Positions 882 to 63,823 of a stretch of 64,000 bases of DNA are shown piece by piece (position 1 is the first letter of the stretch; every line of letters begins with the position of its first letter). The position numbers and the translations under genes are program-made. The stretch is taken from contig NZ_OZ253465.1 in assembly GCF_965261555.1 (NCBI RefSeq), positions 686,667 through 750,666 of the forward strand, in the 5' to 3' direction. This stretch comes from Candidatus Palauibacter sp. GTDB lineage: Bacteria; Gemmatimonadota; Gemmatimonadetes; Palauibacterales; Palauibacteraceae. The notes below the pieces were generated by a model, which saw only the letters and a list, made by a program, of their open reading frames with translations, did not search any database and was not told where the DNA came from.

Positions 882-883
882 CG

Positions 884-1387: not shown

Positions 1388-1393
1388 CGACGG

Positions 1394-1981
1394 ATGCTCC
1401 CCACACGGGATGAAGCGCTCGCGATCGTCCACGAATACACCGAGAGCCCCGGACTCCGGCGCCACATGCTGGCGGTGGAGGCCGCCATGCGCGCCTACGC
1501 GAGGAAGTACGGCGAGGACGAGGACCGCTGGGGCGTGACGGGGCTGCTGCACGACTTCGACTACGAGCGCTGGCCCAACCACGACCACGCGGCGGATTCG
1601 GAGCATCCCTCGACCGGGGTCGCCATCCTCCGCGAGAAGGGGGTGGACGAGGACATCCTCGAGACGATCATGGCCCACGCGGACTACACGGATGTCGAAG
1701 CGACGACGCTGATGTCGAAGACGCTCCGGGCCGTGGACGAACTCACCGGCTTCATCACCGCCTGTGCCCTCGTGCGGCCGACCCGGCTCGCCGGCATGAA
1801 GACCCGTTCCGTACGAAAGAAGATGAAGGACAAGGCGTTCGCCGCCGCCGTGAGCCGGGACGAAATGATCGAGAATTGCGCTGAACTCGGCGAAGACATG
1901 GGCGAGCACATCGCCTTCGTCATCGCCGCCATGCAGCTTGCGGCGGAAGATCTCGGCCTGAACGGCCCCGCCGCGGGCTGA
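1394..1981 (+). CDS. HD/HDIG-domain metal-dependent phosphohydrolase
   Basis: 195 aa; H..HD motif (LLHDFDY), HMLAVEAAMRAYA and a C-terminal pattern typical of HDIG proteins. Confidence 0.75.
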   Translation: MLPTRDEALAIVHEYTESPGLRRHMLAVEAAMRAYARKYGEDEDRWGVTGLLHDFDYERWPNHDHAADSEHPSTGVAILREKGVDEDILETIMAHADYTDVEATTLMSKTLRAVDELTGFITACALVRPTRLAGMKTRSVRKKMKDKAFAAAVSRDEMIENCAELGEDMGEHIAFVIAAMQLAAEDLGLNGPAAG

Positions 1982-2022
1982 ACCGCCGTGAAGAACGCCG
2001 CCCGATTCGGAGGTGCCCGAGC

Positions 2023-2142
2023 ATGACCACGACGACGATCATCATGATGGTCCTCATCCTCGGATTCGTCTGGGGAGGACTCGCCGTCCTCGCGTCGGTC
2101 GCCTGGCGCAAGGAAGGCGCCAAGCGAGGCGGAGAGAGCTAA
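2023..2142 (+). CDS. small hydrophobic peptide (39 aa, single TM, WGG motif); possible transporter small subunit
   Basis: ATG at 2023; MTTTTIIMMVLILGFVWGGLAVLASVAWRKEGAKRGGES*; not in the ORF track because it overlaps the spurious N-terminal extension of ORF 2013..2927. Confidence 0.3.
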   Translation: MTTTTIIMMVLILGFVWGGLAVLASVAWRKEGAKRGGES

Positions 2143-2165
2143 CCGCCCACCATGGGCCACCCGCA

Positions 2166-2927
2166 ATGAGGGAGAGGCGGCGCGCGGGACGGATCCTCCT
2201 GGTGACGCTGGCCGCGCTGGCGGTCGGGTCGTGCTTCCTCCCCATCCCGCGCGCGATGCGCCCGCCCGAAGCGGTCGTCTCCGACTCGGCGGCCGCGCGA
2301 CAGGACTCGATCGCGAGAGCCGAGCAGGCCGCAGCCGCCCGACGCGACTCCATCCTCGCCGCGGAGCGCGAGGCCGCACGGCAGGATTCGATCGCGAGGG
2401 CGCAGCGGGAGGCCGCCCGACAGGACTCGATCGCGAGGGCCGCCGCGCGCCGGGACTCCATCCTCGCCGCGGAGCGGGAAGCCGCGCGCCGGGACTCGCT
2501 GGAGGCGGCCCGGCGCGACTCCCTGATCGCGGCCGCCCGACGCGACTCGATCGCCAGCATCGAGGCAGCCCGGGCCGCGGCCGCCGCGGAGTTGGCGCAG
2601 CTCCGCGAATCGGGCCCCGTCTACGTCGCCCACGATGAGGCGCCCCGCCTCGTGTGGGACACCGAGGCCGAGGCCGCGCTGGCCACGACGCTGCTGCCCG
2701 TGATCCGCGGCGAGGGGCTCGACCCGAACATCACGACCTCCGTCTGGCTTCTCGTGCGGACCGATGGAAGGGTCGAGGCGACCGTGATCCAGGTCTCTTC
2801 CGGCGACGGCGCCTTCGACGCGGCAGCCGTGCGGGCGGCCCGCGGACTGCTCTTCGCCCCCGCCCTCCGCGGCGGGCGCGCGGCGCCCGTCTGGGTCCTG
2901 CGCGAAATCTCGCTCCTCATGCGGTAG
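2166..2927 (+). CDS. TonB-family energy transducer (TonB C-terminal domain) with an RxDSIxxAx repeat linker
   Basis: Internal Met at 2166 followed by signal/TM (ILLVTLAALAVGSCF); C-terminal LLPVIRGEG..VWLLVRTDGRVEATVIQVSSGDGAFDAAAVRAARGLLFAPA matches the TonB_C fold; central 27-bp periodic repeats. Confidence 0.7.
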   Translation: MRERRRAGRILLVTLAALAVGSCFLPIPRAMRPPEAVVSDSAAARQDSIARAEQAAAARRDSILAAEREAARQDSIARAQREAARQDSIARAAARRDSILAAEREAARRDSLEAARRDSLIAAARRDSIASIEAARAAAAAELAQLRESGPVYVAHDEAPRLVWDTEAEAALATTLLPVIRGEGLDPNITTSVWLLVRTDGRVEATVIQVSSGDGAFDAAAVRAARGLLFAPALRGGRAAPVWVLREISLLMR

Positions 2928-2930
2928 CCG

Positions 2931-4298
2931 GTGTTTTCGGCGCTGTTCAGGGGACTCGGCGGGACCGCCGAGTGGACTCGAGATGAGGATCGCCACCCGC
3001 ACAGTGCGCGACTGAGCCGCCGCGCATTCACCCGTTTGGTCGGCTCGTTCATCCTCCTGGAGTCCGCGGGTCCTTCCACCGCCTCCGGCGCCGCGTTGGG
3101 GGAGTACTCACGGTACGGCTCTTCCGGCGCGGCGGGCGCCATTCCGGCGAACCGTACCGAAACGAACCCGGGAGTGCCCGGGCAGCAGGCCGTGCGGGGG
3201 ACTATCGACCTGACGATAGGCCGGACCGAGGGGGACGAGCGGTATCTCTTCGGGCGGATCCTCGGCTTGGCGTTGGACGCTCGCGGTCGAATCTACGTGT
3301 CCGATCTACACGCCGGCGTTCGTGTGTACGGGCCCTCGGGTGAGTTTCTCTTCCAGTTGGGTCGGATTGGCGGCGGGCCGTTGGAATACAGACGCTACCC
3401 AAGCAGCACGGCCATCCTGCCGGACGGACACCTGTGGATCGTGTCGTTTGAGGACAAGGTGCTGCGGGCCGATCCGGCGCAGGACGACGTATCCGCAGGT
3501 CTGGAGGTGGTACGCGTCGGGTCGAGCGGGAGTTGGTTGTACGATGGTCTGTTGGCCCTCGATCCCGAGGGAATGCTCATCGCGTCGGGAGGCGAGCCGG
3601 ATCGGCGCGACGGACTCCGCAGGCGGCGCGTTTCGCTGCGCGATGGAAGTACCGTCTCGAAGACCAACCCGTGGGCGCTGCGACCAACGCCGGAGGAGAT
3701 GGGCTGGCGGTTGTCGCCGAAGTTCTCACGGGCGGAGCTGGCGGAGGCCGAGGAATGGAATGCGTTGGGGTACTTGTATGGATTGGGCGGCCCTCCCCCT
3801 TACGGAACCGATCGGCTCATGGCGTTCTCGACCGACGGCCGGGTCGCCCTGGCGGTGACGACGACGTATCGCGTCGACATCTACGATTCTCTCCTGCGCC
3901 CCGTGACGGTCATCGAGCGGGACGAGCAAGGGCCGCAGCTGACGGCTGCCGAACGGCGGAATGCGGTCGCGCACACCGCGGCACGCCGCCGCGACGAAGA
4001 GTTCTACCCCTATGTTGACAGCGACATCCCGGACCGGAAGCCGCCGCTACGAGATCTGTGGTTCGACCGGGACGGGCGGCTGTGGCTCGAGCGCTACCTG
4101 GCGAACGAGCCGCAGCAACAGGGGGCCGACGTGTACGGCGTGGATGGGGACTACCTCTTTTCGGCTGAGTGGCCGCGCGGCGTGGATTTCGGTTACGGGG
4201 CAATTCGGGGCGACACCGGCCTCGGCGTCCAGACGGACGCACTCGGCATCCCGCGCGTTGTCCGTGTGCGGTTCAGTGCCGAGGAGGCGGATCCGTGA
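2931..4298 (+). CDS. NHL-type 6-bladed beta-propeller protein; divergent member of the paralog family arrayed at 28.4-38 kb
   Basis: GTG start overlapping the TonB stop; NHL-like GxxGxGEF/GPxE blades (YVSDLHAGVRVYGPSGEF..) and a C-terminal RVVRVRFS tail similar to the array paralogs; no clear signal peptide. Confidence 0.55.
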   Translation: MFSALFRGLGGTAEWTRDEDRHPHSARLSRRAFTRLVGSFILLESAGPSTASGAALGEYSRYGSSGAAGAIPANRTETNPGVPGQQAVRGTIDLTIGRTEGDERYLFGRILGLALDARGRIYVSDLHAGVRVYGPSGEFLFQLGRIGGGPLEYRRYPSSTAILPDGHLWIVSFEDKVLRADPAQDDVSAGLEVVRVGSSGSWLYDGLLALDPEGMLIASGGEPDRRDGLRRRRVSLRDGSTVSKTNPWALRPTPEEMGWRLSPKFSRAELAEAEEWNALGYLYGLGGPPPYGTDRLMAFSTDGRVALAVTTTYRVDIYDSLLRPVTVIERDEQGPQLTAAERRNAVAHTAARRRDEEFYPYVDSDIPDRKPPLRDLWFDRDGRLWLERYLANEPQQQGADVYGVDGDYLFSAEWPRGVDFGYGAIRGDTGLGVQTDALGIPRVVRVRFSAEEADP

Positions 4299-4364
4299 CC
4301 GCCTCGCGGCGTCCTGCGTGATATACTGTTGCGGCCCGCTCCCGGCGGATAGCTTGCGCGCCCG

Positions 4365-7300
4365 ATGCCACGCCGCGACGACATCTCCTCGATTCTTCTC
4401 ATAGGCTCCGGCCCGATCGTGATCGGCCAGGCCTGCGAGTTCGACTACTCCGGGACGCAGGCCTGCCGGGCGCTCCGCGAGGAGGGATATCGAGTCATCC
4501 TCGTGAACTCGAATCCCGCCACGATCATGACGGACCCGGACATCGCCGACGCGACCTACATCGAGCCGCTGACGGCCGACTGGGTCGCGCGGGTCATCGA
4601 GGCGGAGAAACCCGACGCGCTCATCCCGACGATGGGCGGCCAGACCGCGCTCAACGTCGCGCTCGAACTCGCCGAACGCGGGGTTCTCGACGAGCACGGG
4701 GTGGAGTTGATCGGCGCCGATGTCCGGGCGATCCAGCTTGCCGAGGACCGCGAGCAGTTCGCCGAAGCCATGGAACGGATCGGTCTCGCGCTGCCCCCCG
4801 GCGGCTTCGCCCGCTCGCTCGACGAGGCGCTCGCCCTCGTCGAGGACACGGGATTCCCCGCCATCATCCGGCCGTCCTTCACCCTCGGCGGCACCGGCGG
4901 AAGCACCGCGTACAACCGCGAGGAGTTCGAGGACCTCGTCCGCTCCGGCATCCGCTCCTCGCCGATCGGAGAGGTGCTCATCGACAAGAGCATCATCGGC
5001 TGGAAGGAGTTCGAACTCGAGGTGATGCGAGACCGGGCGGACAACGTCGTCATCGTCTGCTCGATCGAGAACTTCGACGCCATGGGCGTTCACACGGGCG
5101 ATTCGATCACCGTCGCGCCGGCGCTCACCCTCTCGGACCGCGAGTACCAGGCGATGCGGGATGCGGCGATCGCCTGCATCCGCGAGATCGGCGTGGACGC
5201 GGGCGGCTGCAACATCCAGTTCGCCGTGCATCCGACGACCGGCGAGATGCTCGTCATCGAGATGAACCCGAGGGTGTCCCGGAGTTCGGCGCTCGCGTCG
5301 AAGGCGACCGGCTTCCCGATCGCGCGCATCGGCGCCAAGCTCGCCGTCGGCTACCGCCTCGACGAGATCCCCAACGCGATCACGCAGGTGACGCCTTCCT
5401 GCTTCGAGCCGGTGCTCGACTACATGGTCGTGAAGATCCCGCGCTTCGCGTTCGAGAAGTTCCCGAAGGCCGACGCGACGCTCGGCGTGCAGATGAAGGC
5501 CGTGGGCGAGGTGATGGCGATCGGTCGCACCTTCCAGCAGGCGTGGCTGAAGGGCTTCCGCGCGCTCGAGAACGGGCGGTCGGGGTGGCTGCCCTCGCCG
5601 GACCCCGACGCGGACCGCCTAGAGGACGACGCCGTCGATACGGTGCGGGCCGCGATCCGCACCGCGACGCCCGAACGCCCCTTCCAGCTCTACCGCGCCT
5701 TCCAGGCGGGCCTCTCCGTGGACGAGATCAACCGGATCACGGGTATCGACCCCTGGTTCCTCTCCCAACTCGAGGAACTGGTGCGCGAGGGCCAGGCCTT
5801 CGCGGCGGCCGGGGAGGTCACGCCTGACGACGTCGAACGGTTGAAGCGCATCGGCTTCGGCGACGCGGAGCTGGGACAGTTGCGCGGGATTCCGGAAGCC
5901 GAGGTGCGCGAGGTGCGCCAGGCCGCCGGACTCCGGCCCGTCTACAAGACGGTCGACACCTGCGCGGGCGAGTTCCCCGCCGCCACGCCGTACCTCTACT
6001 CGACCTACGAGGACGAGAACGAATCCGAGCGCTCGGACCGGCGGAAGATCATCATCCTCGGCAGCGGCCCGAACCGCATCGGACAGGGCATCGAGTTCGA
6101 CTACTGCTGCGTTTCGGCCTCGCTCGCGCTGCGCGACGAAGGGTTCGAGACGATCATGATCAACTCGAATCCCGAGACCGTCTCCACCGACTTCGACATC
6201 TCGAACAAGCTCTACTTCGAGCCGCTCACGGTGGAGGACGTGCTCGCGATCGTGGAGCAGGAGGAGCCGGAGGGCGTCATCGTCCAGTTCGGCGGACAGA
6301 CGCCGCTGACGATCGCGCGCAAGCTCGAACAACTCGGCGTCCCCATCCTCGGGACGAGCGTGGAGTCGATCGACCGCACCGAGGACCGCCGCCGCTTCGA
6401 CGAACTCTGCCGTGAGCTCGGGGTTCCGATGCCGCCGGGCGGGACGGCGACGAGCATCGAGGAGGCGCTGGCGATCGCGGAGGAGATCGGGTATCCCGTT
6501 CTCGTCCGGCCCAGCTACGTGCTCGGCGGCCGCGCCATGGAGATCGTGTACGACCCGGTCTCGCTGCGGGAGTACTTCGCGCGCGCGGTGCAGGCGTCGC
6601 CCGAGCATCCCGTGCTCCTCGACCGGTTCCTCGAGGACGCGTGGGAGGCGGATGTCGACGCGGTGTGCGACGGGGAGACCGTCCTGATCGGCGGGATCAT
6701 GGAGCACATCGAGGAGGCGGGCATCCACTCGGGCGACTCGGCCTGCGTCCTGCCGCCCTACCTCCTGCGAGACGTCGACATGGAAGCCATGCGCCGCTTC
6801 ACGCGGGACTTCGCGCGGGCGCTGGACGTCCGGGGCCTCATCAACGTGCAGTTCGCCGTGCACGAGAAGACGGTGTACGTGCTCGAGGTGAATCCGCGCG
6901 CGAGCCGCACGGTGCCGTTCGTCAGCAAGGCGACGGGGGTCCCGCTCGCGCGGGTCGCCGCGCGGGTGCTCGCCGGCGTGAAGCTCGCCGATCTCGGACT
7001 CGGGGGCGAACTCGTCCCGCACCAGGTCTCCGTGAAGGAAGCGGTGCTCCCCTTCGACAAGATCCCGGATGCGGACACCGTGCTCGGGCCGGAGATGCGT
7101 TCCACGGGGGAGGTCATGGGATACGCGGACAGCTTCGGGCTCGCGTTCGCGAAATCGCAGATCTCCGTCTACCAGGGGCTGCCGACGGAGGGGGCCGTCG
7201 CGATCACCGTGCACGACCAGGACAAGCCGAACATGGTGCCGGTCGCGCGCCGTTTCCACGAACTCGGCTTCACGGTCCTCGCCACGGAGGGGACGGCGAG

Positions 7301-7628
7301 GTATCTGCGCGGCCGCGGCGTTCCGTGCGAGCGCATCCTCAAGGTGCACGAGGGGCGTCCGAACCTCCTCGACCGCATCGTCTCGGGCGAGGTGCAACTC
7401 CTCCTGAACACCCCGCTCGGCAAGCACGCCCAGTACGACGACTACATGATCCGCCGCGCCGCGGTCTCCCGCCGCGTGCCCTACACGACGACGCTCTCCG
7501 CGGCATCCGCGGCCGCCGACGCGATCATCGCCCTTCGCCACCGCCGGCACACGGTCCACAGCCTCCAGGCGCGTGACGTCGCCGAAGCGGAAGAGGACCG
7601 GCTCACGAGGACCGCCGGCTCCGTCTGA
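4365..7628 (+). CDS. carB: carbamoyl-phosphate synthase large subunit
   Basis: 1087 aa; N-terminus [24 protein letters not shown], duplicated ATP-grasp halves, C-terminal MGS-like domain. Confidence 0.95.
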
Positions 7629-7743
7629 CGTTCCCGCGGGGAGGCCTCCCCGGGCCGACGCCATCCCACTTTCCGACGCGGGCCGCCCACACTTATGCTA
7701 CGGAGGCACTTTGCCTTTCGGTTCCCTTCGCCCCGGTGCGTCC

Positions 7744-9384
7744 ATGGGTACAATCGGTAGACGAACGCTCGCAGCCACGCTGGTCGCCCTTCTCTCCGCT
7801 CCCACGGCTCTGGCGGCCGTGCAGGGCCTCCCCGACGATGAACTCGCGCCCCTCGTGGCCCGTGTCGAGGAAGGCGTACTCGAGCGCGCCAAGCTCGCCC
7901 AGGTCATGGTCGACAAGATCTTCTCCTTCTCCGAACTGGGGCAGCAGGAGATCGAGACCTCGGCCTACATCACCGGGATCCTGGAGGAGAACGGCTTCAC
8001 CGTCGAGTACGGGCCCGTGGGCATCCCGACCGCCTGGTTCGCGCGCTGGGGCAGCGGCTCGCCCGTCATCTCCTTCGGATCCGACATCGATGGAATTCCG
8101 AAGGCCAACCAGAAGCCCGGCGTCGCCTATCACGACCCGCTGATTCCGGGCGCGCCCGGCCACGGCGAAGGTCACAACTCCGGGCAGGCCGTGAACGTCG
8201 TGGCGGCGCTCGCGCTGAAGGACGTCATGGAGGCCGAGGGGATCGAGGGCACGCTCGTGCTCTGGCCCGGGGTCGCCGAAGAGCAGCTGGGCTCCAAGGC
8301 CTGGTACGTGCGGGACGGCTATCTCGAGGACATCGACGTCACCCTCTTCACGCACGTGAGCAGCAACCTGTCGGTGAGCTGGGGCCAGGGGAGCGGCACG
8401 GGGCTCGTCTCCGTGGAGTTCACCTTCGAGGGCGAGGCCGCCCACGGCGCGGGCGCTCCCTGGCGGGGCCGCAGCGCGCTCGACGCGGTCGAACTGATGA
8501 ACGTCGCCTGGAACTTCCGGCGCGAGCACCTGCGACCCGACCAGCGCTCCCACTACGTGATCAGCGACGGCGGCGACCAGCCGAACGTCGTGCCGCCGAG
8601 CGCTTCGGTATGGTACTTCATCCGCGAGATGGACTACGAGGACATCAAGCGCAACTTCGACACGGCCATCCGCATCGCGGAAGGCGCGGCCCTGATGACC
8701 GACACCGAAATGTCGTACCGGATCATCGGAGCCGCCTGGCCGCGACACTTCAACAAGGTCGTGGCCGAAACGATGCACGAACACATCGAGGAGGTCGGGC
8801 TTCCGGAGTGGACCGACGACGACCACGACTTCGCGAGCGCCGTGCAGCAGTCGGTGGGAAGCGTCCCATCCGGGATGCCCATCGCCCTCTCGGGCCTGGG
8901 GGAGCCGGGGCCGCGCCGGAGCGGCGGGTCCGACGACATCGGCGACATCTCGTGGAACGTGCCCACGGTGACGCTGCGCTTCCCGTCGAACGTGCCGGGG
9001 CTTCCGGGTCACCACTGGTCGAGCGCCATGGCGATGGCGACCCCCATCGCGCACAAGGGCGCGGTCGCCGGCGCGCGCGTCATGGCCCGCACGGCGCTCC
9101 AGCTCTTCGCCCAGCCGAAGCTCGTCGACGACGCGTGGACCTACTTCCGGGAGGAACAGACCTCCGCCATGGAGTATGTCCCCTTCATCGGCCCGGACGA
9201 CCCGCCCCCGATCGACCTCAACAGGGAGATCATGGACACCTTCCGTCCGCTCCTTGAGAAGTTCTATTATGACGAGACGCGCTTCGACACGTATCTTGAT
9301 CAGTTGGGGATCAAGTATCCGACTCTCTCGCGGCCGGCTTCGGCTTCCGCGGAGGACCGGCGGGATCACCCGGGATCGGATTGA
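7744..9384 (+). CDS. M20D family amidohydrolase/peptidase (AbgB-like) with signal peptide
   Basis: In-frame ATG at 7744 followed by a signal peptide (TLVALLSAPTALAAVQG); M20 dimerisation and metal-binding pattern (FTFEGEAAHGAGAPWRGRSALDAVELMN). Confidence 0.8.
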   Translation: MGTIGRRTLAATLVALLSAPTALAAVQGLPDDELAPLVARVEEGVLERAKLAQVMVDKIFSFSELGQQEIETSAYITGILEENGFTVEYGPVGIPTAWFARWGSGSPVISFGSDIDGIPKANQKPGVAYHDPLIPGAPGHGEGHNSGQAVNVVAALALKDVMEAEGIEGTLVLWPGVAEEQLGSKAWYVRDGYLEDIDVTLFTHVSSNLSVSWGQGSGTGLVSVEFTFEGEAAHGAGAPWRGRSALDAVELMNVAWNFRREHLRPDQRSHYVISDGGDQPNVVPPSASVWYFIREMDYEDIKRNFDTAIRIAEGAALMTDTEMSYRIIGAAWPRHFNKVVAETMHEHIEEVGLPEWTDDDHDFASAVQQSVGSVPSGMPIALSGLGEPGPRRSGGSDDIGDISWNVPTVTLRFPSNVPGLPGHHWSSAMAMATPIAHKGAVAGARVMARTALQLFAQPKLVDDAWTYFREEQTSAMEYVPFIGPDDPPPIDLNREIMDTFRPLLEKFYYDETRFDTYLDQLGIKYPTLSRPASASAEDRRDHPGSD

Positions 9385-10009: not shown

Positions 10010-10693
10010 ATGAGCCTCGCAATCGACCTCCGACGCCTGCGCTTCCGCTACGGTGGAGGCCCCTGGGTGCTGGACATCCCCGAACTGACCCTCGAGCGGG
10101 GGACGCGCGCGTTCCTGTTCGGTCCGAGCGGGAGCGGCAAGACCACGCTTCTCGGCGTGCTGGCGGGAGTGCTGGAAGCGGAAAAAGGCGAGGTCAGGGT
10201 GCTCGGCGAGGATCTCGCGTCGCTCTCGGGCGCGCAACGGGACGCCTTCCGGGCGGAGCACATCGGCTACGTCTTCCAGATGTTCAACCTCATCCCCTAC
10301 CTGTCGGTGCTCGACAACATCGCGCTCCCCGCGCGCATGAACGCGGAACGCCGGGCCCGGCTGGACGGGACAGGCGTGAGGGAGACCGCCACGCAGCTGG
10401 CCGATCATCTCCAGATCGGCGACCTGCTGAAGAAGCCGGTGACGGAACTCTCGGTGGGCCAGCAGCAGCGCGTGGCCGCCTGCCGGGCGCTGATCGGGTC
10501 TCCGGAACTCATCGTCGCCGATGAACCGACCTCCTCCCTCGACTTCGACCGCCGGGAGGCCTTCCTCGAACTGCTCTTCCAGGAGTGCGAGCGCGCCGGC
10601 GCCACGCTGGTGTTCGTGAGCCACGACCGCACCCTGGAGGGCATGTTCTCCCGCACCATCTCGCTTCCCGACGTCAACAAGGCGGTGCTCTGA
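10010..10693 (+). CDS. ABC transporter ATP-binding protein (MacB/LolD-like)
   Basis: Walker A GPSGSGKTT, signature LSVGQQQRVA, Walker B LIVADEPTSSLD; its stop overlaps the next start (TGATG). Confidence 0.9.
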   Translation: MSLAIDLRRLRFRYGGGPWVLDIPELTLERGTRAFLFGPSGSGKTTLLGVLAGVLEAEKGEVRVLGEDLASLSGAQRDAFRAEHIGYVFQMFNLIPYLSVLDNIALPARMNAERRARLDGTGVRETATQLADHLQIGDLLKKPVTELSVGQQQRVAACRALIGSPELIVADEPTSSLDFDRREAFLELLFQECERAGATLVFVSHDRTLEGMFSRTISLPDVNKAVL

Positions 10694-12201
10694 TGCTGGT
10701 CTTCGATCTCGCGCTCAAGTCGCTCCGCAATCGCGCCTTCAGCACCTCGCTCACGGTGGGCTCCATCGCCCTCAGCGTCGCCCTCCTGATCGGCGTGGAG
10801 AACGTGCGCGTGGGGATGCGCGAGAGCTTCTCCAACACCATCAGCCAGACCGACCTCATCGTGGGCACCAAGGGCGGCACGATTCAGCTGCTGCTGTATT
10901 CGGTCTTCGGCATGGGAGCGCCGACGGAGAACGTCTCGTGGGAGGCCTACAGAGAGTGGGCGGACCACCCCGCGGTCGAGTGGACCATCCCCTACGGCCT
11001 GGGGGACAGCCACAGAGGGTTCCGGGTCATCGGCACGAACGAGGACTTCTACCGCCACTACCGCTACCGCGGAGGTCAGCAGATCGCGCTGGCCGAGGGA
11101 CGGGCGAACGAGGGCCTGTTCGACGTGACGCTGGGCGCGGACGTGGCGACCGAGCTGAACTACGCGCTCGGCGACGAGATCGCGGTGACGCACGGGCTCG
11201 GCGAAGTGGGTTTCGTGACCCACGACCACATGCCCTTCACGGTCACGGGCGTCCTCGCGAAGACGTTCACCCCCGTCGACCGCGCGATCTACGTGACCCT
11301 CGAGGGCATGGAGGCCATCCACTGGGAGGACGGAGCGCCGCCAGCGTCGGACGACGAACACGACCACGAGGCGGAGGCGGAGGCGGCCCCCGCCGACGAT
11401 GGCCACGCCCATGACGACGAGGCCGAGGCGCACGCGGCTTCCGCCGACGACGGCCACGCCCATGACGACGAGGCCGAGGCGCACGCGGCTTCCGCCGACG
11501 ACGGCCACGCCCATGACGACGAGGCCGAGGCCGAGGCGGCTTCCGCCGACGATGGCCACGCCCACGACGACGAAGCGGAGGCGCAGGCGGCTCCCGCCGA
11601 TGATGGCCACGTCCACGCGGAGGATATCTCGATCGAGGATGTCGAGGTCACGCAGGTCACCTCGTTCTTCGTGGGCACGACCAACCGCCGGGACGTGCTC
11701 CAGCTGCAGCGCGAGATCAACGACTTCGAGGATGAGCCGATGATGGCCGTGATCCCCGGCGTCGCCCTGAACGAGATGTGGCAGGGCCTGGCCTACGCCG
11801 AGACCGGGCTGCGGCTGGTGGCCATCTTCGTTGTCCTGGTAGGGCTGCTCGGGATGCTGGTCTCGCTCTACACGTCGCTCAACGAGCGCCGGCGCGAGAT
11901 GGCGATCCTGCGCGCCGTCGGCGCCGGACCCAACCGGATCATCACCCTGCTCGTGCTCGAATCGCTGTGTCTGGCCTCGGCGGGAGCGCTCGCGGGACTC
12001 ACGCTGGTGTACGCGCTGCTCTCGGTCGCACAGCCCATCGTCGAGGCGCAGGCGGGGCTCTTCATCCCGATCCGGCCGCCCGGTTCCATCGAGCTGCTCT
12101 TCCTCGGCGCCGTGGTGCTGGCCGGATTCCTGATGGGCTTCGTACCCGCGCTCAAGGCCTACCGCACCGCCCTCCACGACGGGCTGGCGGTGCGGGTCTA
12201 G
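10693..12201 (+). CDS. ABC transporter permease (FtsX/MacB-like) with a His-rich repeat insertion in the periplasmic loop
   Basis: N-terminal TM then MacB_PCD-like loop, C-terminal FtsX 3-TM bundle; loop carries 4.5 x ADDGHAHDDEAEAHAAS repeats. Confidence 0.85.
   Translation: MLVFDLALKSLRNRAFSTSLTVGSIALSVALLIGVENVRVGMRESFSNTISQTDLIVGTKGGTIQLLLYSVFGMGAPTENVSWEAYREWADHPAVEWTIPYGLGDSHRGFRVIGTNEDFYRHYRYRGGQQIALAEGRANEGLFDVTLGADVATELNYALGDEIAVTHGLGEVGFVTHDHMPFTVTGVLAKTFTPVDRAIYVTLEGMEAIHWEDGAPPASDDEHDHEAEAEAAPADDGHAHDDEAEAHAASADDGHAHDDEAEAHAASADDGHAHDDEAEAEAASADDGHAHDDEAEAQAAPADDGHVHAEDISIEDVEVTQVTSFFVGTTNRRDVLQLQREINDFEDEPMMAVIPGVALNEMWQGLAYAETGLRLVAIFVVLVGLLGMLVSLYTSLNERRREMAILRAVGAGPNRIITLLVLESLCLASAGALAGLTLVYALLSVAQPIVEAQAGLFIPIRPPGSIELLFLGAVVLAGFLMGFVPALKAYRTALHDGLAVRV
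11392..11625 (+). repeat. 51-bp in-frame tandem repeat (about 4.5 units) encoding a His/Asp/Glu-rich motif
   Basis: Units at 11392, 11443, 11494 and 11545 are near-identical (gccgacgatggccacgcccatgacgacgaggccgaggcgcacgcggcttcc). Confidence 0.85.
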
Positions 12202-16616: not shown

Positions 16617-17084
16617 ATGACGCCCGAACGCCGCAGGACCCGCGAGCGGGCGATCCTTCACATCATCGACACCCAGGAGATCCGGAGCCAGATCGAACTC
16701 GTGGCGGCGCTCGCGCGAGAGGGGATCTCGACCACGCAGACGACGCTGTCCCGCGACTTCCGCCGCCTCGGCATCGTGAAGCGGGCCGACGCCGGCGGAC
16801 CCAGATATCACCGGCCCGGACGGGACACGACGCCGCCCTCCCCGCGGCGCATGCTGGAGGCGACGCTGAGCGAACTCGCGCTGGACGTCGGCCCGGGCGA
16901 TGCGCTGTTCGCGATTCGCACGCTGAGCGGCTGCGCCAATGCCGTCGCGATCTCCATCGACGAGGCGGATCTGGAGGGCGTCCTCGCGACGGTGGCGGGA
17001 GATGACACGATCCTCGTGCTGTGCCGCGACGCGGAGACCCGTTCCCGGCTCGTGAACGAGTTCAGGTCGCTCGCCCAACTCTGA
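16617..17084 (+). CDS. argR: arginine repressor
   Basis: In-frame ATG at 16617; N-terminal winged-helix (ELVAALAREGISTTQTTLSRDFRRLGI) and C-terminal arginine-binding domain (GDDTILVLC). Confidence 0.85.
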   Translation: MTPERRRTRERAILHIIDTQEIRSQIELVAALAREGISTTQTTLSRDFRRLGIVKRADAGGPRYHRPGRDTTPPSPRRMLEATLSELALDVGPGDALFAIRTLSGCANAVAISIDEADLEGVLATVAGDDTILVLCRDAETRSRLVNEFRSLAQL

Positions 17085-17086
17085 AC

Positions 17087-17130
17087 CGGCGCCGCGCGGC
17101 GGCGCGACTGACGTTAGTTTTGTTCCGTGT
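17087..17130 (+). terminator. possible intrinsic terminator after argR (GC-rich palindrome followed by a T-rich tract)
   Basis: ccggcgccgcgcggcggcgcg palindrome, then ..ttagttttgtt. Confidence 0.3.
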
Positions 17131-17199
17131 CGGCGCTCGTCTGCACGAACGGGCTCGGCGTCCCGTGCAAGAAGTCGCGCGACGCACGGATTTCGTCGG

Positions 17200-18408
17200 C
17201 TACGAGAAGAACTGCTGTCGCACCTCGCCGCTGCCGACGAACTGTGACAGCAGGCGATAGTTATTGCGTTCAAAGCGCACGCGGCCCGCCACGACGGCCG
17301 GATGAACTCCCACATCGCTTGCGAAGTGCATCACGTTCATCGCTGTGGGGCGTTCACGAACGCGGCTGGCGTCCCATACGTCCCCAGGGATCAGTGCCTC
17401 CTCCGCCCACTCGTCAGCCTCGACTTCGCGCGGATCCTCCGTGGAAGGCCGGGCGCGACGAAGGGACTGATCGTCGAGAAACGCCTGGGGATCGTCGTAG
17501 TCCATGTGACGCCCCACATGAGCCAGTTCGTGCAGCAGACAGAACCAGAAGTTGTCTATGCGATCGTGCCGGAGCGTCAGAGCCACCACGGGGGTCCCGT
17601 CGGCGAGCTGCAGCGCGGCGCCGTCAAGGTACGTGCGGGGCAGGTGTTCCAGGGCCACGAACGGGATTCCAAGTTCCGCCAAGGTGGCGGCGGCGCGGCG
17701 GGGACCATCTCGCAGCGGACTCATCTTTGCCAGTTCGCCCAGCACCTCCGGGGTGATGCAGCCCGGAGCGAAATCCGCCTCTGGTCGGTTCGCGTTCGCG
17801 ACCGCCATCACCTGCCAACACCAGGCCTGCAGCGCGTAGGCGTCCGACTTGGCGTTTGCCCGGAGGCCCGTTTGCCGAAACATCACGGCGCTGCCGGGCC
17901 CAACGCCGGCGCGCTCAACAAACCGCTCCATGATCTCCTTGGCATGGTGAACCAGAGATGGAACCTTCGGGACCCATCCGCGATTGGCCATCGTGCGGAG
18001 CGGGAAACGCCTCCAGTGGTCGTCGTCCCAGTCTTCCGGCGGATCCGGCCGCCGCAGCAGAATGTCGGCCCGAACGTCCAGGTGCTTATGTAGCGCCCGT
18101 GCCATGGGGAGCGTCAGCGGGCGCTTGCGACCGAGTACTTCCGACACCCTCGCGGCACTCCCGATGAAGGGAACCAGGTCACGAGGCGACAGACCGCGCT
18201 CTTCCATGCGCAACTTGATGGCGTCGACTGGATCCAGGTCGCCAATGGGGAAGTGCCTGCGCTCATAGAGTTCCACCAAGTCCGCCAGGATGTCCAACTC
18301 TCCCGCTCGATCGCTCCCCGGATCCGCGCCCATCAGTTCGGAAATCCGAGAAAGAGCGGCCTGGTAGGCCGTGTCGGAGCGGATGGGTCTCAGCTGTGGC
18401 ATCTTCAT
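17200..18408 (-). CDS. higA: HigA antitoxin (E. coli-type XRE HTH) fused to an ImmA/IrrE family metallopeptidase domain
   Basis: Start MKMPQLRP at 18408 overlaps the higB stop by 11 nt; N-terminal ~125 aa align with E. coli HigA (IGSAARVSEVLGRKRPLTLPMARAL vs IGSKSMVSRVLSGKRKLTLEHAKKL); C-terminal ~270 aa carry the HEXXH motif (LLHELAHV) of COG2856/DUF955. Confidence 0.8.
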   Translation of the reverse strand: MKMPQLRPIRSDTAYQAALSRISELMGADPGSDRAGELDILADLVELYERRHFPIGDLDPVDAIKLRMEERGLSPRDLVPFIGSAARVSEVLGRKRPLTLPMARALHKHLDVRADILLRRPDPPEDWDDDHWRRFPLRTMANRGWVPKVPSLVHHAKEIMERFVERAGVGPGSAVMFRQTGLRANAKSDAYALQAWCWQVMAVANANRPEADFAPGCITPEVLGELAKMSPLRDGPRRAAATLAELGIPFVALEHLPRTYLDGAALQLADGTPVVALTLRHDRIDNFWFCLLHELAHVGRHMDYDDPQAFLDDQSLRRARPSTEDPREVEADEWAEEALIPGDVWDASRVRERPTAMNVMHFASDVGVHPAVVAGRVRFERNNYRLLSQFVGSGEVRQQFFS

Positions 18409-18418
18409 GTTCCCCCAG

Positions 18419-18712
18419 TCAGATCGTGGCCGCGTCCACTCCGTTGTATTCGCTGTGCGTGCCCGCAAACCGCACGAAGACTATCCCGTTGGCGTAGTCC
18501 ACTTGCACGACGATTCGGTAACGGTTTCCTCGAATCCTGAAAACCACTCTGCGATCGGGCAGGATGCTTGGATTCCATCTACCGGCCCGGATATCAGCAG
18601 GGCTGACCCACTCAGCCCGTTCGACACCTTGAATCCAGTCCACGAACGCGCTCCGCGCGTCCGCGTGATCCCTTGCGCAGTCGTGGATCAGTTTCGTGGA
18701 GATGATCCGCAT
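18419..18712 (-). CDS. higB: type II toxin HigB (RelE/ParE superfamily)
   Basis: 97 aa; ..FRIRGNRYRIVVQVDYANGIVFVRFAGTHSEYNGVD matches the HigB family consensus. Confidence 0.85.
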   Translation of the reverse strand: MRIISTKLIHDCARDHADARSAFVDWIQGVERAEWVSPADIRAGRWNPSILPDRRVVFRIRGNRYRIVVQVDYANGIVFVRFAGTHSEYNGVDAATI

Positions 18713-18778
18713 GGCATCCTGACATCGAGTACATCCTCATCCAAGACATCGCACTTAGTAAGTTTCCAAACCGGAAAG

Positions 18779-20017
18779 TTAAGTGCCGGTCGCGTCATCG
18801 TCAAAGATCCGAGCAGGCTGCGGATCGTTGCCTTCCCCGCCGTCTCTTGCTGGCCGAACCCGCGCCGCGCGCAGGTCCGACAGAGGGATCGGAGGGCCGC
18901 CCCACGCGACGCCCCGCATCATGGCGATGGCCGTGGAACGAAGCAGTGCGTACGCCACGATCACGACGGCGAGCGGAAAAACGAGGACGAGCCAGGGATG
19001 GGCGTCATCCCGCAGTACGGTCAGCGCCGGCAGAAGGCTGGTGAGCAGGCAGGCCGTGAAGATGATGGCGGGGACGGTCTCGCCGGTCGCCCAGAGCAGT
19101 GGCGCCAGCACGCCCGGAGCGGTCGCAAGCCACGACAGCCCCGCGGCGGATACGAGGGAATCGGCGAGACGGTAGTTCCGCGCGGCGAAGAGGTTCTTCT
19201 CCGTCCCGTGAACGAAACCGCCGACGGAATCGTACCAGGGGCACGCGATCATCGCTTCGCCGTTGAGGAACTCCGACTGCATCCCGGACTCCTTCACGAG
19301 CTGACCCATCCGCAGATCCTCGTCGGGCCTGAGGGCGACGCTTCGGTGCCCGCCGAGGGCACGGTACGAATCGGCACGCATGATCGTATAACCTCCGACG
19401 CCCATGAAGGCCGAACTGCGAGGGTCGCGGACCTTCCACAGACGCTTGGTGGCGGAGATGCAAAGCCGAAGGGCCATCGTGCAGGCCCGAAGCAAGGTGC
19501 CGCTCACCGCGACACGGGGGCCCGCGCTGAGATGGTCCAGACCTCCGCGCAGGAGATGCCGCACGCCGAAGGCGACGGCGTCCGGCTCGAAGGTAATGTC
19601 GCCATCGGTGAAGAGCAGAAGCTCTCCCGCAGCCGCGTCCGCCCCCCGTTGGGTCGCGTAGTTCTTGCCGAACCAGCCGTCGGGAAGCTCCTCCACATGG
19701 AGCACCGATAGCCGCCCGTTCTCGCGGGCCAGGTTCTCGGCGATCTCCCCTGTACGGTCTTCCGACCGGTCGTTGACGAAGATGACTTCGAAGTCCGGGT
19801 AGCGTATGGCAAGCAGGGAGCGCAGCGCCTCCTCCACTGACCGTGCCTCGTTCCTGGCCGCCACGATCACCGAGAGACGGGGAAGCGGAGCGTCGTCCGC
19901 GCGGGGCGGAGCCACCTCGTCGAGCCGGCGAACCTTGAGTTCGCTGTAGATGACGGTCCCCGCGAGGCCAGCCCACACGACGAGCGTGAAGACCCCGAGG
20001 GCAACGAGAAGAGTCAT
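18779..20017 (-). CDS. family 2 glycosyltransferase (membrane-associated)
   Basis: GT-A signature SVIVAARNE..DFEVIFVNDRSED..FTDGD (DxD) followed by C-terminal TM helices. Confidence 0.7.
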   Translation of the reverse strand: MTLLVALGVFTLVVWAGLAGTVIYSELKVRRLDEVAPPRADDAPLPRLSVIVAARNEARSVEEALRSLLAIRYPDFEVIFVNDRSEDRTGEIAENLARENGRLSVLHVEELPDGWFGKNYATQRGADAAAGELLLFTDGDITFEPDAVAFGVRHLLRGGLDHLSAGPRVAVSGTLLRACTMALRLCISATKRLWKVRDPRSSAFMGVGGYTIMRADSYRALGGHRSVALRPDEDLRMGQLVKESGMQSEFLNGEAMIACPWYDSVGGFVHGTEKNLFAARNYRLADSLVSAAGLSWLATAPGVLAPLLWATGETVPAIIFTACLLTSLLPALTVLRDDAHPWLVLVFPLAVVIVAYALLRSTAIAMMRGVAWGGPPIPLSDLRAARVRPARDGGEGNDPQPARIFDDDATGT

Positions 20018-33049: not shown

Positions 33050-34261
33050 CTACTGTCGAGGTCGCTCTGCCAGTTCGTACACGACGACGTTTTGTATGTC
33101 GAGGTCGTCCCTCAGCACGCCGAGGACGAGGGCTCCGGTCACGTCGAGGATCTGGAACCTCGGCGGCGTCTCGACCTGTCCCAGCCACTCTCCGTCCGGG
33201 GAAATGACGGTGTACGGGGACCCCTCTTCCGGGTAGGCGGGCCGGTAGGAGGGCAGCCATATGTTGCCGTCCGCGTCGGCGAAGGGGGTACTGAAGAACG
33301 GAATCGGCTGGCCGATCATGGCGCGATACCGGTCCATGTCTTCCTGAATGATCTCCTCGAGCCGGGCATCGGACACTCCGTAGTGCCTCCGGCCCAACGC
33401 TCGATTATAGGCCTCGCCGTGCTCCAGGAGTTCCTCGGCCAGCAGGTTGGGCTCGGGACGCCAGCGCACGATCTGGGTTACCCTGCCGTCCGGCAGGCGC
33501 CAGGCGATCTCGGGCCTGTCGGACCTCGTATGGACGAACCGCCCCGCCGCGACCGCGACCTCGCCGATGGGCCGGATGATCAGACGCGGCTGCTCCGACC
33601 GCTGTCGCGGGTAGTGGTCGTACGACGCCACCGTGTCGAGGGCGCCGGTTTCGATATCGAACAGGGTCATGTGCCCGGCGAGCCACTCCTCCTCTATGTC
33701 GATCCAGAGACGGTGGGGGTATCGGTCCATCATCATCAGCTCGCCGGATGAACCGATCCCCGCCACACCGAAGTGCGCTGCCCGCGGGAGGTTCACGATG
33801 CGCGCGACCGAATCGCCGACGAAGAGCGTGAGGCGGGACTGACGATCATCAGGCACAAGGACGCTGTCCTGGCCCAGGACGAACACCGCGTAGGGGGAGA
33901 TGACTTCGCCCGGTCCCTCTCCTGCCCTGGCGAGCACCTCGTGCGTCGCGCCGTCCGGACTCAGGACGATCACTTCGCTGTACCAGGCAACGACCGCGCT
34001 TCCATCCGGCAAGAGCCGGCCGGCGTCGACGAACTGAAACTCGTAGTCGCCGGGGTTGGCTCCGTGCCGGTACAGCGGCTCGGCCGCGAGGGTGAAGGGA
34101 GCCTCGACCTCCGGCACACCTGCGTACTCGACGATCCGCACGCCCGTGCTGTCCCGGATCTGGACCTGGATCTCGCCGGCGGGCCCGGCGTCGCCCCCGC
34201 AGGCAGCGAGGGCCGCCGCCAGAATCAGTACGCGGCTCGGCGTGAGTACGCGGCGCGTCAC
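33050..34261 (-). CDS. NHL-type beta-propeller lipoprotein, array paralog 4
   Basis: GTG at 34261 overlaps the upstream stop (GTGA); signal VLILAAALAACGG; GEGPGEV motif; C-terminal DLDIQNVVVYEL. Confidence 0.7.
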   Translation of the reverse strand: MTRRVLTPSRVLILAAALAACGGDAGPAGEIQVQIRDSTGVRIVEYAGVPEVEAPFTLAAEPLYRHGANPGDYEFQFVDAGRLLPDGSAVVAWYSEVIVLSPDGATHEVLARAGEGPGEVISPYAVFVLGQDSVLVPDDRQSRLTLFVGDSVARIVNLPRAAHFGVAGIGSSGELMMMDRYPHRLWIDIEEEWLAGHMTLFDIETGALDTVASYDHYPRQRSEQPRLIIRPIGEVAVAAGRFVHTRSDRPEIAWRLPDGRVTQIVRWRPEPNLLAEELLEHGEAYNRALGRRHYGVSDARLEEIIQEDMDRYRAMIGQPIPFFSTPFADADGNIWLPSYRPAYPEEGSPYTVISPDGEWLGQVETPPRFQILDVTGALVLGVLRDDLDIQNVVVYELAERPRQ

Positions 34262-35367
34262 CGGGCGAAGGGCAGGTTCGCGATGTCGTACCAGTCGAGG
34301 GCTCGGTCCGGAATCCCGTCGCCATCGTCCGGCCCCACCTGCCGATCGACGAGCACGACCAGAGTCGACCCCAGGAGGTCGAAGGCCCTGAGCCGGTCCC
34401 GGACCCGCACCGACCCGACGTATTCGGCGTCGTCGTACACGTCCAGCCAAGACCATTCGTGCTGGTCGCGGCCCGTGGCGACCCAGTAGCGGTTGGCGGC
34501 GTCGAAGAGATGCTCGCCCGCGGACAGATAGTAGTGCTTCGGAGTGGCGCTATACCTCTCCAACCCCTCGTCGATGGCGGGCGTGCGCGGGAGACCCTGC
34601 GATCTGTTGAGGGCCAGGAGTTCCTCTTCCCGCCGGGCCAGGTCCCGCTCGTTCGGGAGTTCCGGGACGTAAGTCGGTGCGCGGAGCACCGTGGCGTCGC
34701 CGGCGTCGCCGACGAAGACCAGATGCCCTTCGCAGGCCACGAACGCCCAGCCCCCGGCCGGGTCCGGGATACCATGGATGATCTGCCCGCACTCGATGCC
34801 CCACGGACCGGGCGGCGACTCTTCCTGCCCCACCGTCTCCCCGGAGGCGAGGTCCACCTCGTACCGGGTCATCAGCGATCCGGACATCCGGCCGAGCATC
34901 ACCATGTAGTCCAGCGACACGCCTGAAATCGCGGTGCCGAACGATGGGAAGGGCTGGAATACATCCGGGAGCAGCACATCCGACACGTAGACGCCCGATG
35001 GCTCGAAGACCGTGAAGCGGCCCAGGTCGGAATCCACCACGCCGACCGTTCCCGCCTCTCCGCGAGCGAGAGACGTGGGATCGCCGAACTCCCCGGGACC
35101 TTCGCCCTCGCGCCCGAAGACTCCCACGACGCCGCCTTCACCCGCCACGCAGCGGACCTGCCCTTCGTAGGAGTCGATGACGCAGGCGGTTCGCTCGTCT
35201 GCGAGCAGCGCGACTTCCTCGCTCTCGCTCAGGGGCACGGCGGCCGTGCCGATCAACTCGGGCGTGAAGACGGCCTCGTCTGTGGCTTCACCCGAACCGC
35301 ACGCCACGGCGATGACCAGGAGTGGAAGGCACGCGCCCGCGCGGCCGCGCGGAACGCGGATGGTCAT
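34258..35367 (-). CDS. NHL-type beta-propeller lipoprotein, array paralog 5 (more divergent)
   Basis: ATG (Met75 of the track ORF) overlaps the upstream stop (ATGA); signal LPLLVIAVACGSG; REGEGPGEFG motif. Confidence 0.65.
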   Translation of the reverse strand: MTIRVPRGRAGACLPLLVIAVACGSGEATDEAVFTPELIGTAAVPLSESEEVALLADERTACVIDSYEGQVRCVAGEGGVVGVFGREGEGPGEFGDPTSLARGEAGTVGVVDSDLGRFTVFEPSGVYVSDVLLPDVFQPFPSFGTAISGVSLDYMVMLGRMSGSLMTRYEVDLASGETVGQEESPPGPWGIECGQIIHGIPDPAGGWAFVACEGHLVFVGDAGDATVLRAPTYVPELPNERDLARREEELLALNRSQGLPRTPAIDEGLERYSATPKHYYLSAGEHLFDAANRYWVATGRDQHEWSWLDVYDDAEYVGSVRVRDRLRAFDLLGSTLVVLVDRQVGPDDGDGIPDRALDWYDIANLPFAR

Positions 35368-36812
35368 GACTTCTCCAGGGAATAGAGGCGGACGTATTCG
35401 ACGCCCCGGCTGTCGCTCCATACGCCGAGCAGGTAGTCGTCGCCGATCTCGAGGCCGGGGGCCATGCTCGCGATGAACCCCCGGTTCAACCCTGCCGGGA
35501 CGGAGACGCTGCCCAGCCAGGTGCCGTCCGCGGCGAAGACCTCGAACGGCGCCACTTCGATCCCCGCGCCGAAGAACGGCTCCACCCACAGACTCCCCGT
35601 CTCATCCAGGCGGATGGACCGCAGCACGGGGAGCGTCGGAGCCCTCGGATCGTCGCGGCGACGACGCCCCATTCCCTCCGCCTGCTCGCGCGAGACGCCG
35701 CCGTACATGACGTTCGTCTCAATGTACTCCTCGATCTCCGCGTCCACGTGGGCGTCCGTGACGGGGACCGGGGCGATGTCGCGACTGAGGATCCGCCTCG
35801 TCCCGCCGTCCTCGAGGGAGATCGACCGTATGTGGAACGCCTCCGTATCGACTGCCGCGAGCGTCCCGGGAGTGACAGCGAACCGCGGCCCTTTCCCGAA
35901 GTCGTAGCCGATGTAGGCGACGTTCTCGCCGTACCGCGCGATCACCTGCTCCGCGCCGGGGAAGTCCGAGACCGCCCGGATCGCGCCGTCGGCCAGGTCG
36001 AAGGTCGCGACTCTGACGGCGGGCCATCGCACGACCCCTCCCTCCGGCATCTCGGTATTGTCCGTGAAGGCCATGACGAGATCGCGACCCGAGACGCCGA
36101 GCGCGCGCTGCGGCATGGATCCGCTCCAAGGCGATTCGACGGGGAGCGTGCGGACGAGTTCGCCCGCCGCGTCGAAGATCTGCACGCGCCCGAGCGCGAG
36201 GTCGTACGTGACGAGCGAGTCGCCGGCGAGCACGCCGAGGAAGGAGAGGAACCGGTGTTCGCCGGGCCCTTCGCCTTCTCCGGCCGCGCGCCACACGAAG
36301 GTTCCCGCGGCATCGTAGCGGCGGAGTTCGCCGGAGCCCCCGTCCCCGAGAACGATGTCGCCGGAGCCGAGGCGGACCGCGCCGACCACGCCGTCGAGTT
36401 CGTAGTCGGGATCTCCGGTCGCGGTCCCGATCTCGAGCAGCGGCGGCTCGCCCACGGTCCAGCCCTCGCCCGGGCCCCACGCCGGCTCGACGGCCGTGGC
36501 GATGGCCACGCCGGCCGAGTCCGAGTGCAGCGTGCCCGCCGGCGCCCCCGCCGAATCGCAGGCTTGCACGGCGAGCACGACCGAGAGTGGAACGAAAGCG
36601 CCCGCGCGCCATGGGGTCGGCCGGCCCGCGCTCCACCGACGGCGAGTCAGGAGGCGGGCTCCCGCGACAACGACCAGAGCTGGACGTATTCGACACCCAA
36701 CTCGTCGGATACCCATCCCAGCAGGTAGTCCTCGCCGATCTCGAAGATGCGGAGGCCGGCCGGGGTCTCGACCAGGCCCTGGACCCGTCCCTCCGCGTCG
36801 AAGACGGTCCAC
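35364..36812 (-). CDS. NHL-type beta-propeller lipoprotein, array paralog 6 (start uncertain)
   Basis: GEGEGPGEH motif and C-terminal RGVEYVRLYSLEKS; lipobox ..LSVVLAVQAC near residue 85 of the track ORF, so the true start probably lies within about 36650-36720; the track start overlaps paralog 7 by 166 nt. Confidence 0.6.
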   Translation of the reverse strand: MDRLRRGGTGPGPGRDPGRPPHLRDRRGLPAGMGIRRVGCRIRPALVVVAGARLLTRRRWSAGRPTPWRAGAFVPLSVVLAVQACDSAGAPAGTLHSDSAGVAIATAVEPAWGPGEGWTVGEPPLLEIGTATGDPDYELDGVVGAVRLGSGDIVLGDGGSGELRRYDAAGTFVWRAAGEGEGPGEHRFLSFLGVLAGDSLVTYDLALGRVQIFDAAGELVRTLPVESPWSGSMPQRALGVSGRDLVMAFTDNTEMPEGGVVRWPAVRVATFDLADGAIRAVSDFPGAEQVIARYGENVAYIGYDFGKGPRFAVTPGTLAAVDTEAFHIRSISLEDGGTRRILSRDIAPVPVTDAHVDAEIEEYIETNVMYGGVSREQAEGMGRRRRDDPRAPTLPVLRSIRLDETGSLWVEPFFGAGIEVAPFEVFAADGTWLGSVSVPAGLNRGFIASMAPGLEIGDDYLLGVWSDSRGVEYVRLYSLEKS

Positions 36813-39861: not shown

Positions 39862-39876
39862 TGGGTTTTCCGCGGC

Positions 39877-41652: not shown

Positions 41653-41723
41653 GGTATGCCTCCGTACTCTATGGTCGACTCTGTGGTCGCTCTCCGTCGT
41701 CCTGTATCGCGCCTGCATCCGGA

Positions 41724-62101: not shown

Positions 62102-62348
62102 GTGTGCAATCGGGAAGGCGCTCTTCGATGACGAGGGCCGAATCTGGGTCGCCCGCTTCGAGCCCTTCGTGTTCGTCGAGAGGCTTTACTACGTGCTCGA
62201 ACCCGATGGCGAACCTGTGGCGCGACTCCGGATCCCGGCGGAAAAACGGGCGCTGCTCTCCGGCGTTCGCGGCGATCGAGTGCTGCTGGCCGGAAAGGAC
62301 GCGCTCGACGTCCCGCGGATCGAGGTCGTACGGATCCGGAAGCCCTGA
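62071..62348 (+). pseudogene. 5'-truncated C-terminal fragment of an NHL-propeller paralog
   Basis: ..GRIWVARFEPFVFVE..EPDGEPVARLRIPAE..LLAGKDALDVPRIEVVRIRKP* resembles the last ~90 aa of the array paralogs; the upstream part is replaced by the IS-like fragment. Confidence 0.45.
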
Positions 62349-62388
62349 CGCCTGGGGTCTGGTGACAAGGAGGTGTAGGCGAACCAGG

Positions 62389-63804: not shown

Positions 63805-63823
63805 CCCTGGCAGCCCTTTCCGG

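Follow-up and report, generated by a model that had tools for sequence, protein, structure and literature searches.

A stand-alone HigB/HigA-M78 peptidase gene pair in a Gemmatimonadota genome and its relation to known toxin-antitoxin and defence systems

The stretch of DNA analyzed here, hereafter the window, comprises 64,000 nucleotides of Candidatus Palauibacter sp. (Gemmatimonadota; contig NZ_OZ253465.1, positions 686,667 to 750,666) and carries on its minus strand a higB-like gene (18419..18712) followed by a gene (17200..18408) for a HigA-type antitoxin joined through a helical region to an M78 metallopeptidase. We find that this locus is a stand-alone, horizontally acquired two-gene member of the HigB/HigA-M78 family, and that its proteins resemble components A and B of the PD-λ-2 system of Escherichia coli, by which letters they are called below. 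The family assignment is close to certain, since it follows from PADLOC matches for both A and B, from the Pfam families HigB_toxin and Peptidase_M78, from a HigA profile, from structural matches to HigA, CapP and IrrE, and from the annotation of the same pair on plasmids. As an architecture it has been catalogued before and is widespread on plasmids and chromosomes, and the novelty implied by the first-pass annotation of this DNA was overstated: full-length PADLOC models exist for both proteins and RefSeq annotates the pair on plasmids. Taken alone the locus adds little beyond one more genome, Gemmatimonadota-like, to those known to carry this widespread module; the family itself poses the question of what role a protease built into an antitoxin plays and which partner is the toxin.

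The 97-residue A protein matches Pfam HigB_toxin (PF09907) with E=1.3e-21 and the PADLOC model PD-Lambda-2_A with 4.2e-28, and over residues 1-91 it matches the E. coli/Shigella HigB structures 5ifg_A/5ycl_B with E of about 2e-3, which bears out its first-pass description as a higB-like product with a RelE/HigB fold. Residues F58, G62, N63, R66, R81, T85, H86 and Y89, all common to E. coli HigB, show conservation of at least 96% among 72 intact homologues and the window copy; the window copy retains all of the conserved residues. On the basis of this conservation and of general knowledge of the RelE family, R66, R81, H86 and Y89 are putative catalytic residues. NCBIfam gave no match for either A or the fusion protein B.

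B is encoded by a single open reading frame (ORF) that is matched by PADLOC PD-Lambda-2_B with 5.9e-131 over residues 3-400 (model of 402 positions). Its helix-turn-helix (HTH) and peptidase parts had been read as one uninterrupted protein, and we find neither a stop nor a frameshift between them. A reading as two genes rather than a fusion was dropped because the ORF is continuous here and is full-length and free of stops in 79 of 80 related loci, a set picked by similarity to B in which loci with a broken B are under-sampled. The first ATG of the gene lies at 18408 (MKMPQL...; 402 residues) and the second at 18402 (400 residues); homologue N-termini align with the second Met and, because the homologues begin there, we give the product as 400-402 residues. 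A 422-residue product starting at the in-frame TTG at 18468, which would overlap higB by 50 nt, was rejected because homologue N-termini align at MPQL/MADI. The two genes do not overlap by 11 nt, as had been reported: the higB stop codon is the TGA at 18421-18419, leaving a 10-nt spacer (16 nt if ATG 18402 is used) that reads CTGGGGGAAC and contains, on the minus strand, the Shine-Dalgarno-like sequence GGGGGA (18412..18417, read from the sequence).

The HigA-type antitoxin domain occupies residues 1-118 of B (minus strand, 18055..18408). A family profile built from 53 homologues of the fusion protein matches HigA (5ifg_B/5ycl_A) with E=7e-10, positions 6-113 aligning against HigA 20-131 and so covering almost all of the antitoxin, and the HTH stretch IGSAARVSEVLGRKRPLTL aligns with IGSKSMVSRVLSGKRKLTL of E. 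coli HigA. The earlier assignment of the N-terminus to HigA thus stands. Residues 1-118 are 37-53% identical (tblastn) to stand-alone HigA genes of ~118 residues whose neighbors, on hundreds of plasmids and in Stx phages, are HigB genes.

Residues 246-402 (minus strand, 17203..17673) form a metallopeptidase domain of the M78 (ImmA/IrrE/CapP) type. Here the Pfam Peptidase_M78 match is barely over its cut-off (23.5 versus 22 bits, E=5e-5, residues 272-376), and the first-pass assignment to this family is backed by a weak PADLOC capP match (3e-5) and by structural matches to CapP and IrrE/PprI. The zinc-binding/catalytic motif HELAH, read from the sequence at residues 293-297 (minus strand, 17518..17532), is found in all 80 related loci, and Glu328 (nt 17425-17427), the probable third ligand, is invariant among homologues; the HELAH/E328 spacing parallels that of the CapP zinc site H96/H100/E129. 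The invariance of HELAH and E328 argues for protease competence.

Between the antitoxin and the peptidase lies a conserved helical region (residues 132-245; minus strand, 17674..18015) in which W132, F135, P136, W145, R183, N185, K187, W196 and C197 are invariant, as is C290 in the peptidase domain. Within it, a basic loop containing LRANAK (residues 174-189; minus strand, 17842..17889) is predicted to be disordered: the AlphaFold2 model of the fusion protein has a mean predicted local distance difference test score (pLDDT) of 77 and a pLDDT below 50 at residues 174-186. R178, R183, N185, A186 and K187 of the loop are at least 95% conserved, and L182 is also listed as invariant. IrrE cleaves DdrO at IEL/RGKRPRD, within a basic loop (PMC6868357), and by likeness to that loop we speculate that LRANAK may be a cleavage or pseudosubstrate loop. 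The helical region travels with the peptidase domain, in that plasmid relatives whose N-terminus is an XRE domain of another kind match residues 135-400 only (helical region plus M78), which indicates that the protease module has been joined to more than one kind of N-terminal HTH. These plasmid proteins are rhizobial or come from Agrobacterium and Acinetobacter and are annotated as XRE family regulators (for example NZ_CP121661.1, 484615-485388). Over the whole of B, 73 columns are at least 95% conserved, and the window copy is unchanged at every one.

Relatives of the fusion protein are numerous. At E ≤ 1e-5 we count at least 4,297 homologues, a lower bound, and nearly all of the best 120 are of similar length (about 400-420 residues). 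Relatives occur in 395 species-representative genomes and in 372 plasmid records. The closest, at 72-92% identity, are metagenome-assembled genomes (MAGs) of Gemmatimonadota/Longimicrobiales, and others include Vicinamibacterales, Nitrospirales, Binatia, Alphaproteobacteria, Spirochaetia and Entotheonella. In 79 of the 80 related loci the ORF directly upstream of B, in the same orientation, is HigB-like, with a spacing of -4 to +16 nt where it is intact; the 80th locus ends at a contig end, and counts of the upstream gene are given over 79. The fusion beside HigB, for which a database survey had been proposed, is likewise annotated by RefSeq on plasmids, with Acinetobacter (L081) and Deefgea (L082) as examples, under the product names 'type II toxin-antitoxin system HigB family toxin' and 'ImmA/IrrE family metallo-endopeptidase'. 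In two related loci we also observed partial extra copies of the fusion gene, one upstream (L028:3051-3536, residues 2-161) and one downstream (L012:5638-5745, residues 6-41), which may have been left behind by tandem duplication or recombination.

Upstream of higB we found a candidate HigA operator, the palindrome TTTCCAAACCGGAAA (TTTCC-N5-GGAAA) at 18763..18777, which starts 2 nt past the stop of the neighboring glycosyltransferase gene and lies 51-65 nt ahead of the ATG of higB. The first-pass annotation had proposed an operator-like palindrome in this region; its operator-like character holds, and its position is the one given here rather than about 18737-18760. Overlap and palindrome coordinates apart, that annotation described the locus essentially correctly. 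A pattern search for TTYCC-N5-GGRAA was used, the 5-bp arms being too short for a repeat-finder seed, and it returned this site alone in the 64 kb. With 0.16 sites expected and at least one site in 15% of shuffles, uniqueness alone is weak evidence, and the credibility of the site comes from its conservation in relatives. The closest MAG locus (L001) has an identical upstream site, and L002, L003, L005 and L007 have TTCCC-N5-GGGAA at the same distance, so that both arms covary (TTTCC/GGAAA in the window versus TTCCC/GGGAA in the relatives); many loci of other phyla have GTTCCC-N5-GGGAAC at -56. More broadly, 54 of 74 loci have the half-site [TA]GGRA near -50 and 32 of 74 have it near -25, and 21 of the 74 upstream regions contain an inverted repeat, compared with 5 of 423 control segments. 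TTGACA/TATAnn-like hexamers interleave with the operator-like sites in many relatives. Two terminator-like matches from a scan of 16900-19100 were dismissed, as they lie inside coding sequence and are within chance expectation.

These features fit a working model that, as a whole, we hold with moderate confidence. By homology, A would be a ribosome-dependent mRNA endonuclease toxin, and residues 1-118 of B, by homology to E. coli HigBA, would constitute a complete HigA that binds and neutralizes it. Through its HTH the HigA part would also repress the operon at TTCCC-N5-GGGAA sites, represented in the window by the palindrome described above, as phylogenetic footprinting supports. The C-terminal M78 domain would be a latent, signal-activated protease, by analogy with ImmA/ImmR, IrrE/DdrO and CapP/CapH, and would cut its own fusion protein or a dimer partner, perhaps in the invariant disordered LRANAK loop. 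Cleavage would then derepress the operon and free HigB, leading to growth arrest or abortive infection. Signal-triggered self-inactivation of HigA with release of HigB, as put forward in the first-pass annotation, is plausible by analogy; the idea predates that annotation, since Makarova et al. 2009 proposed it for RelE/PIN toxins with Xre-COG2856 fusions (PMC2701414).

Several observations weigh against this model. Cleavage of proteins of the HigB/HigA-M78 family is argued by analogy, and IrrE and CapP have an activating C-terminal GAF sensor domain that the window fusion protein lacks. A sigma-70 consensus scan of 16900-19100 found no promoter around the palindrome. The third component, PD-λ-2 C, is needed in E. 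coli for defense against λvir (PMC9519451), and PADLOC gave no match for it in the neighbors or in the 30 window genes scanned (6-9384, 10585-44755 and 61983-63852); nor was it present among 36 downstream ORFs of the related loci. Lastly, in the only experiment on this family, PD-λ-2 B of E. coli was toxic alone on overexpression and was rescued by A (PMC9519451), which runs counter to a simple HigB-toxin/HigA-antitoxin polarity.

A bolder form of the model, possible but to our minds doubtful, would make B a LexA-like self-cleaving antitoxin/repressor. The helical region, in place of a GAF domain, would sense the signal, and M78 would cut the loop at residues 182-187 in cis or across the dimer, a single cut both freeing HigB and derepressing the operon; the same cassette would serve as a promoter-proximal controller of the cyclic oligonucleotide-based antiphage signaling system (CBASS) in about a fifth of relatives. 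If this were true, the pair would be complete in itself as an abortive-infection module, protease-autonomous and needing neither Lon/Clp nor PD-λ-2 C.

The toxicity of the E. coli B protein favors a reversed polarity, in which the HigA-M78 fusion would be the toxic effector, for example an unrestrained protease or a DNA-binding protein acting on host targets, and the HigB-like protein its inhibitor or sensor. We judge this unlikely, although the window proteins match the PD-λ-2 PADLOC models strongly and B, with its 73 conserved columns, is far more conserved than a typical antitoxin. The E. coli toxicity came from overexpression, COG2856 proteins were non-toxic when tested alone in pneumococcus (PMC4257102), the stand-alone HigA homologues of residues 1-118 are ordinary antitoxins, and A retains the Arg, His and Tyr residues common to RNase HigB.

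The pattern of gene loss bears on the same question. Type II systems usually decay by loss of the toxin while the antitoxin is kept. A is disrupted in 7 of the 79 loci, in all of which B is full-length with HELAH, and in 6 of these 7 B is unchanged at the 73 conserved columns (the value for L004 in this count is an extraction artifact, and B of L004 is clean by tblastn). L001 (OY762926.1; L001:3694-4000) carries an in-frame TGA in A, L003 lacks the C-terminal two-thirds of A and L004 and L078 the N-terminal part, and the gene is frameshifted in L016, L036 and L039. In the two loci from Entotheonella, L036 and L039, the frameshift falls at nearly the same position, and some of the frameshifts are possibly long-read assembly errors. 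The reverse pattern, a stop in B with A intact, is found in one locus of the 80 (L079). Loss of A with retention of B in 7 of 79 loci is hard to square with a B that is lethal without A at native expression, and the comparative sequence data, from loci picked by similarity to B, lean toward the classical polarity, with A as toxin and B as antitoxin, in native loci.

B is followed on the same strand by a CBASS operon in about 15 of the 79 related loci, at a distance of 13-50 nt from its stop. CD-NTases account for 12 of the 36 downstream ORFs tested, the best at 2.6e-128. Clustering yields 11 loci with a SMODS cyclase and a 178-residue protein, as in L080 (5237-6749), and 4 of a type III-like arrangement with CD-NTase, HORMA, AAA+ ATPase and a Cap17-like effector, as in L025 (5272-8777); L018, L028, L029, L030, L031, L033, L035, L045, L052, L059, L065, L069 and L075 are also CBASS-linked. 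Several of the cyclase ORFs in these loci look truncated. Together these arrangements support a link of the HigB/HigA-M78 cassette to defense and suggest that it can head defense operons co-directionally and may act as their general controller. They also favor a reading in which B is a fused repressor/protease of the CapH-CapP type that gates a downstream defense operon, HigB is an addiction or back-up element and the window copy is a cargo-less, self-regulating remnant, as do the operator-like palindrome conserved upstream and the report by Lau et al. 2022 of CapH-CapP fusions in 15 CBASS systems and of one DISARM system with a vapC-like gene and a CapH-CapP fusion ahead of it. We nevertheless think such a switch improbable as an account of the window locus. 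About 64 of the 79 loci, the plasmid copies and the window are without recognizable downstream defense cargo (in the window, PADLOC found none by the module among the neighbors and the 30 genes scanned), and the HigB gene is kept in 72 of 79 loci. Because the pair is conserved and intact without cargo, some function must belong to the pair itself.

The composition of the locus and the pattern of its sharing point to a mobile cassette. GC content is 0.565-0.67 over 17000-18800 versus about 0.70 in the flanks, which agrees with the lower GC noted earlier, and GC content at third codon positions (GC3) is 0.75 in the fusion gene versus 0.85-0.93 in most window genes. The flanks are shared only with the closest MAG (L001, OY762926.1; about 87% nucleotide identity), and other Longimicrobiales match the module only, at 70-74%. 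From the GC and GC3 dip, this module-only sharing in Longimicrobiales and the 372 plasmid records, we conclude that the pair is a mobile cassette. A search around the module for marks of an insertion site gave no tRNA gene and no direct repeats that were convincing; a 29-nt repeat (D2) considered as an insertion mark was dropped, being GC-rich, 79% identical and probably a chance match.

The surroundings are of housekeeping character: upstream are a GT2 glycosyltransferase gene (18779-20017) and an amidohydrolase gene, and downstream a convergent argR-argH. About 980 bp of the glycosyltransferase gene (window 18808-19789) are missing in the otherwise syntenic L001 (3571-3598). This gutted gene together with the nonsense higB of L001 indicates that the flank of the module is unstable, and these two lesions in the closest relative, with the low-GC island among housekeeping genes, are what could be said for regarding the window copy as the remains of a mobile element, inactive, in decay and no longer of any function. 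We consider that very improbable, given that both window ORFs are intact, with no change at the 73 conserved columns of B, all conserved residues of A kept and the operator palindrome intact.

Elsewhere in the window, GC3 is also lower (0.74-0.80 versus 0.85-0.95 in bulk) at 33050-34456, 35942-36313, 38002-42525 and 61983-63852, and these genes, none of which matched PADLOC at 1e-5, may be further horizontally acquired segments. The single PADLOC match among the 30 window genes is that of a 538-residue protein (10585-12201, plus strand) to CARF_m8--CARF_LolE_TM (2.3e-8, residues 398-525); it probably reflects a LolE/FtsX-type permease domain and not a defense gene.

Among known systems, PD-λ-2 matches the window pair through its A and B models, that of B over its full length. 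Vassallo et al. 2022 describe three components for PD-λ-2 of E. coli ECOR42, a HigB-like A, assigned to PF09907, a HigA-Xre-peptidase B whose C-terminal ImmA/IrrE domain is PF06114, and a P4 Beta-like C, PF14350, and the system protects E. coli from phage by abortive infection (PMC9519451). The first two genes and their order are the same as in the window; the hosts differ, E. coli in the one case and a Gemmatimonadota-like high-GC genome in the other. E. coli K-12 HigB-HigA (YgjN-YgjM; PDB 5IFG, 6KML and 6KMQ) shares with the window the toxin-first order and homology of both proteins, and the upstream palindrome, as candidate operator, would be a further likeness. Unlike E. coli HigA, the window antitoxin carries about 285 additional residues, the helical region and the M78 peptidase, and with a built-in peptidase removal of the antitoxin would not depend on Lon or Clp.

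The ImmR/ImmA (ICEBs1), DdrO/IrrE (Deinococcus) and CapH/CapP (CBASS) switches have in common with the window protein the M78 fold, HEXXH with a downstream Glu and a link to an XRE-type HTH. They differ in that the window HTH, which is N-terminal, and the protease form one polypeptide, and no cysteine-switch loop is evident after the HEXXH of the fusion protein. The capH/capP genes are divergent from their cargo, whereas HigB/HigA-M78 is co-directional where cargo exists, and, unlike in plain XRE plus M78 switches, a HigB-like gene always accompanies HigA-M78.

Our literature searches on HigA combined with M78 led only to Makarova 2009, Vassallo 2022 and the CapH/CapP work. Three features of the family could help in designing decisive experiments: strict conservation of the pair without C, covarying operator arms, and recurrent loss of higB with the fusion intact. 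Makarova, Wolf & Koonin 2009 reported that RelE/PIN toxins are recurrently paired with a 'COG2856 Zn peptidase (fused to HTH)' and proposed a three-component system in which the protease cleaves the Xre moiety (PMC2701414), and the architecture of that predicted class is the same as that of the window pair, with no difference between them.

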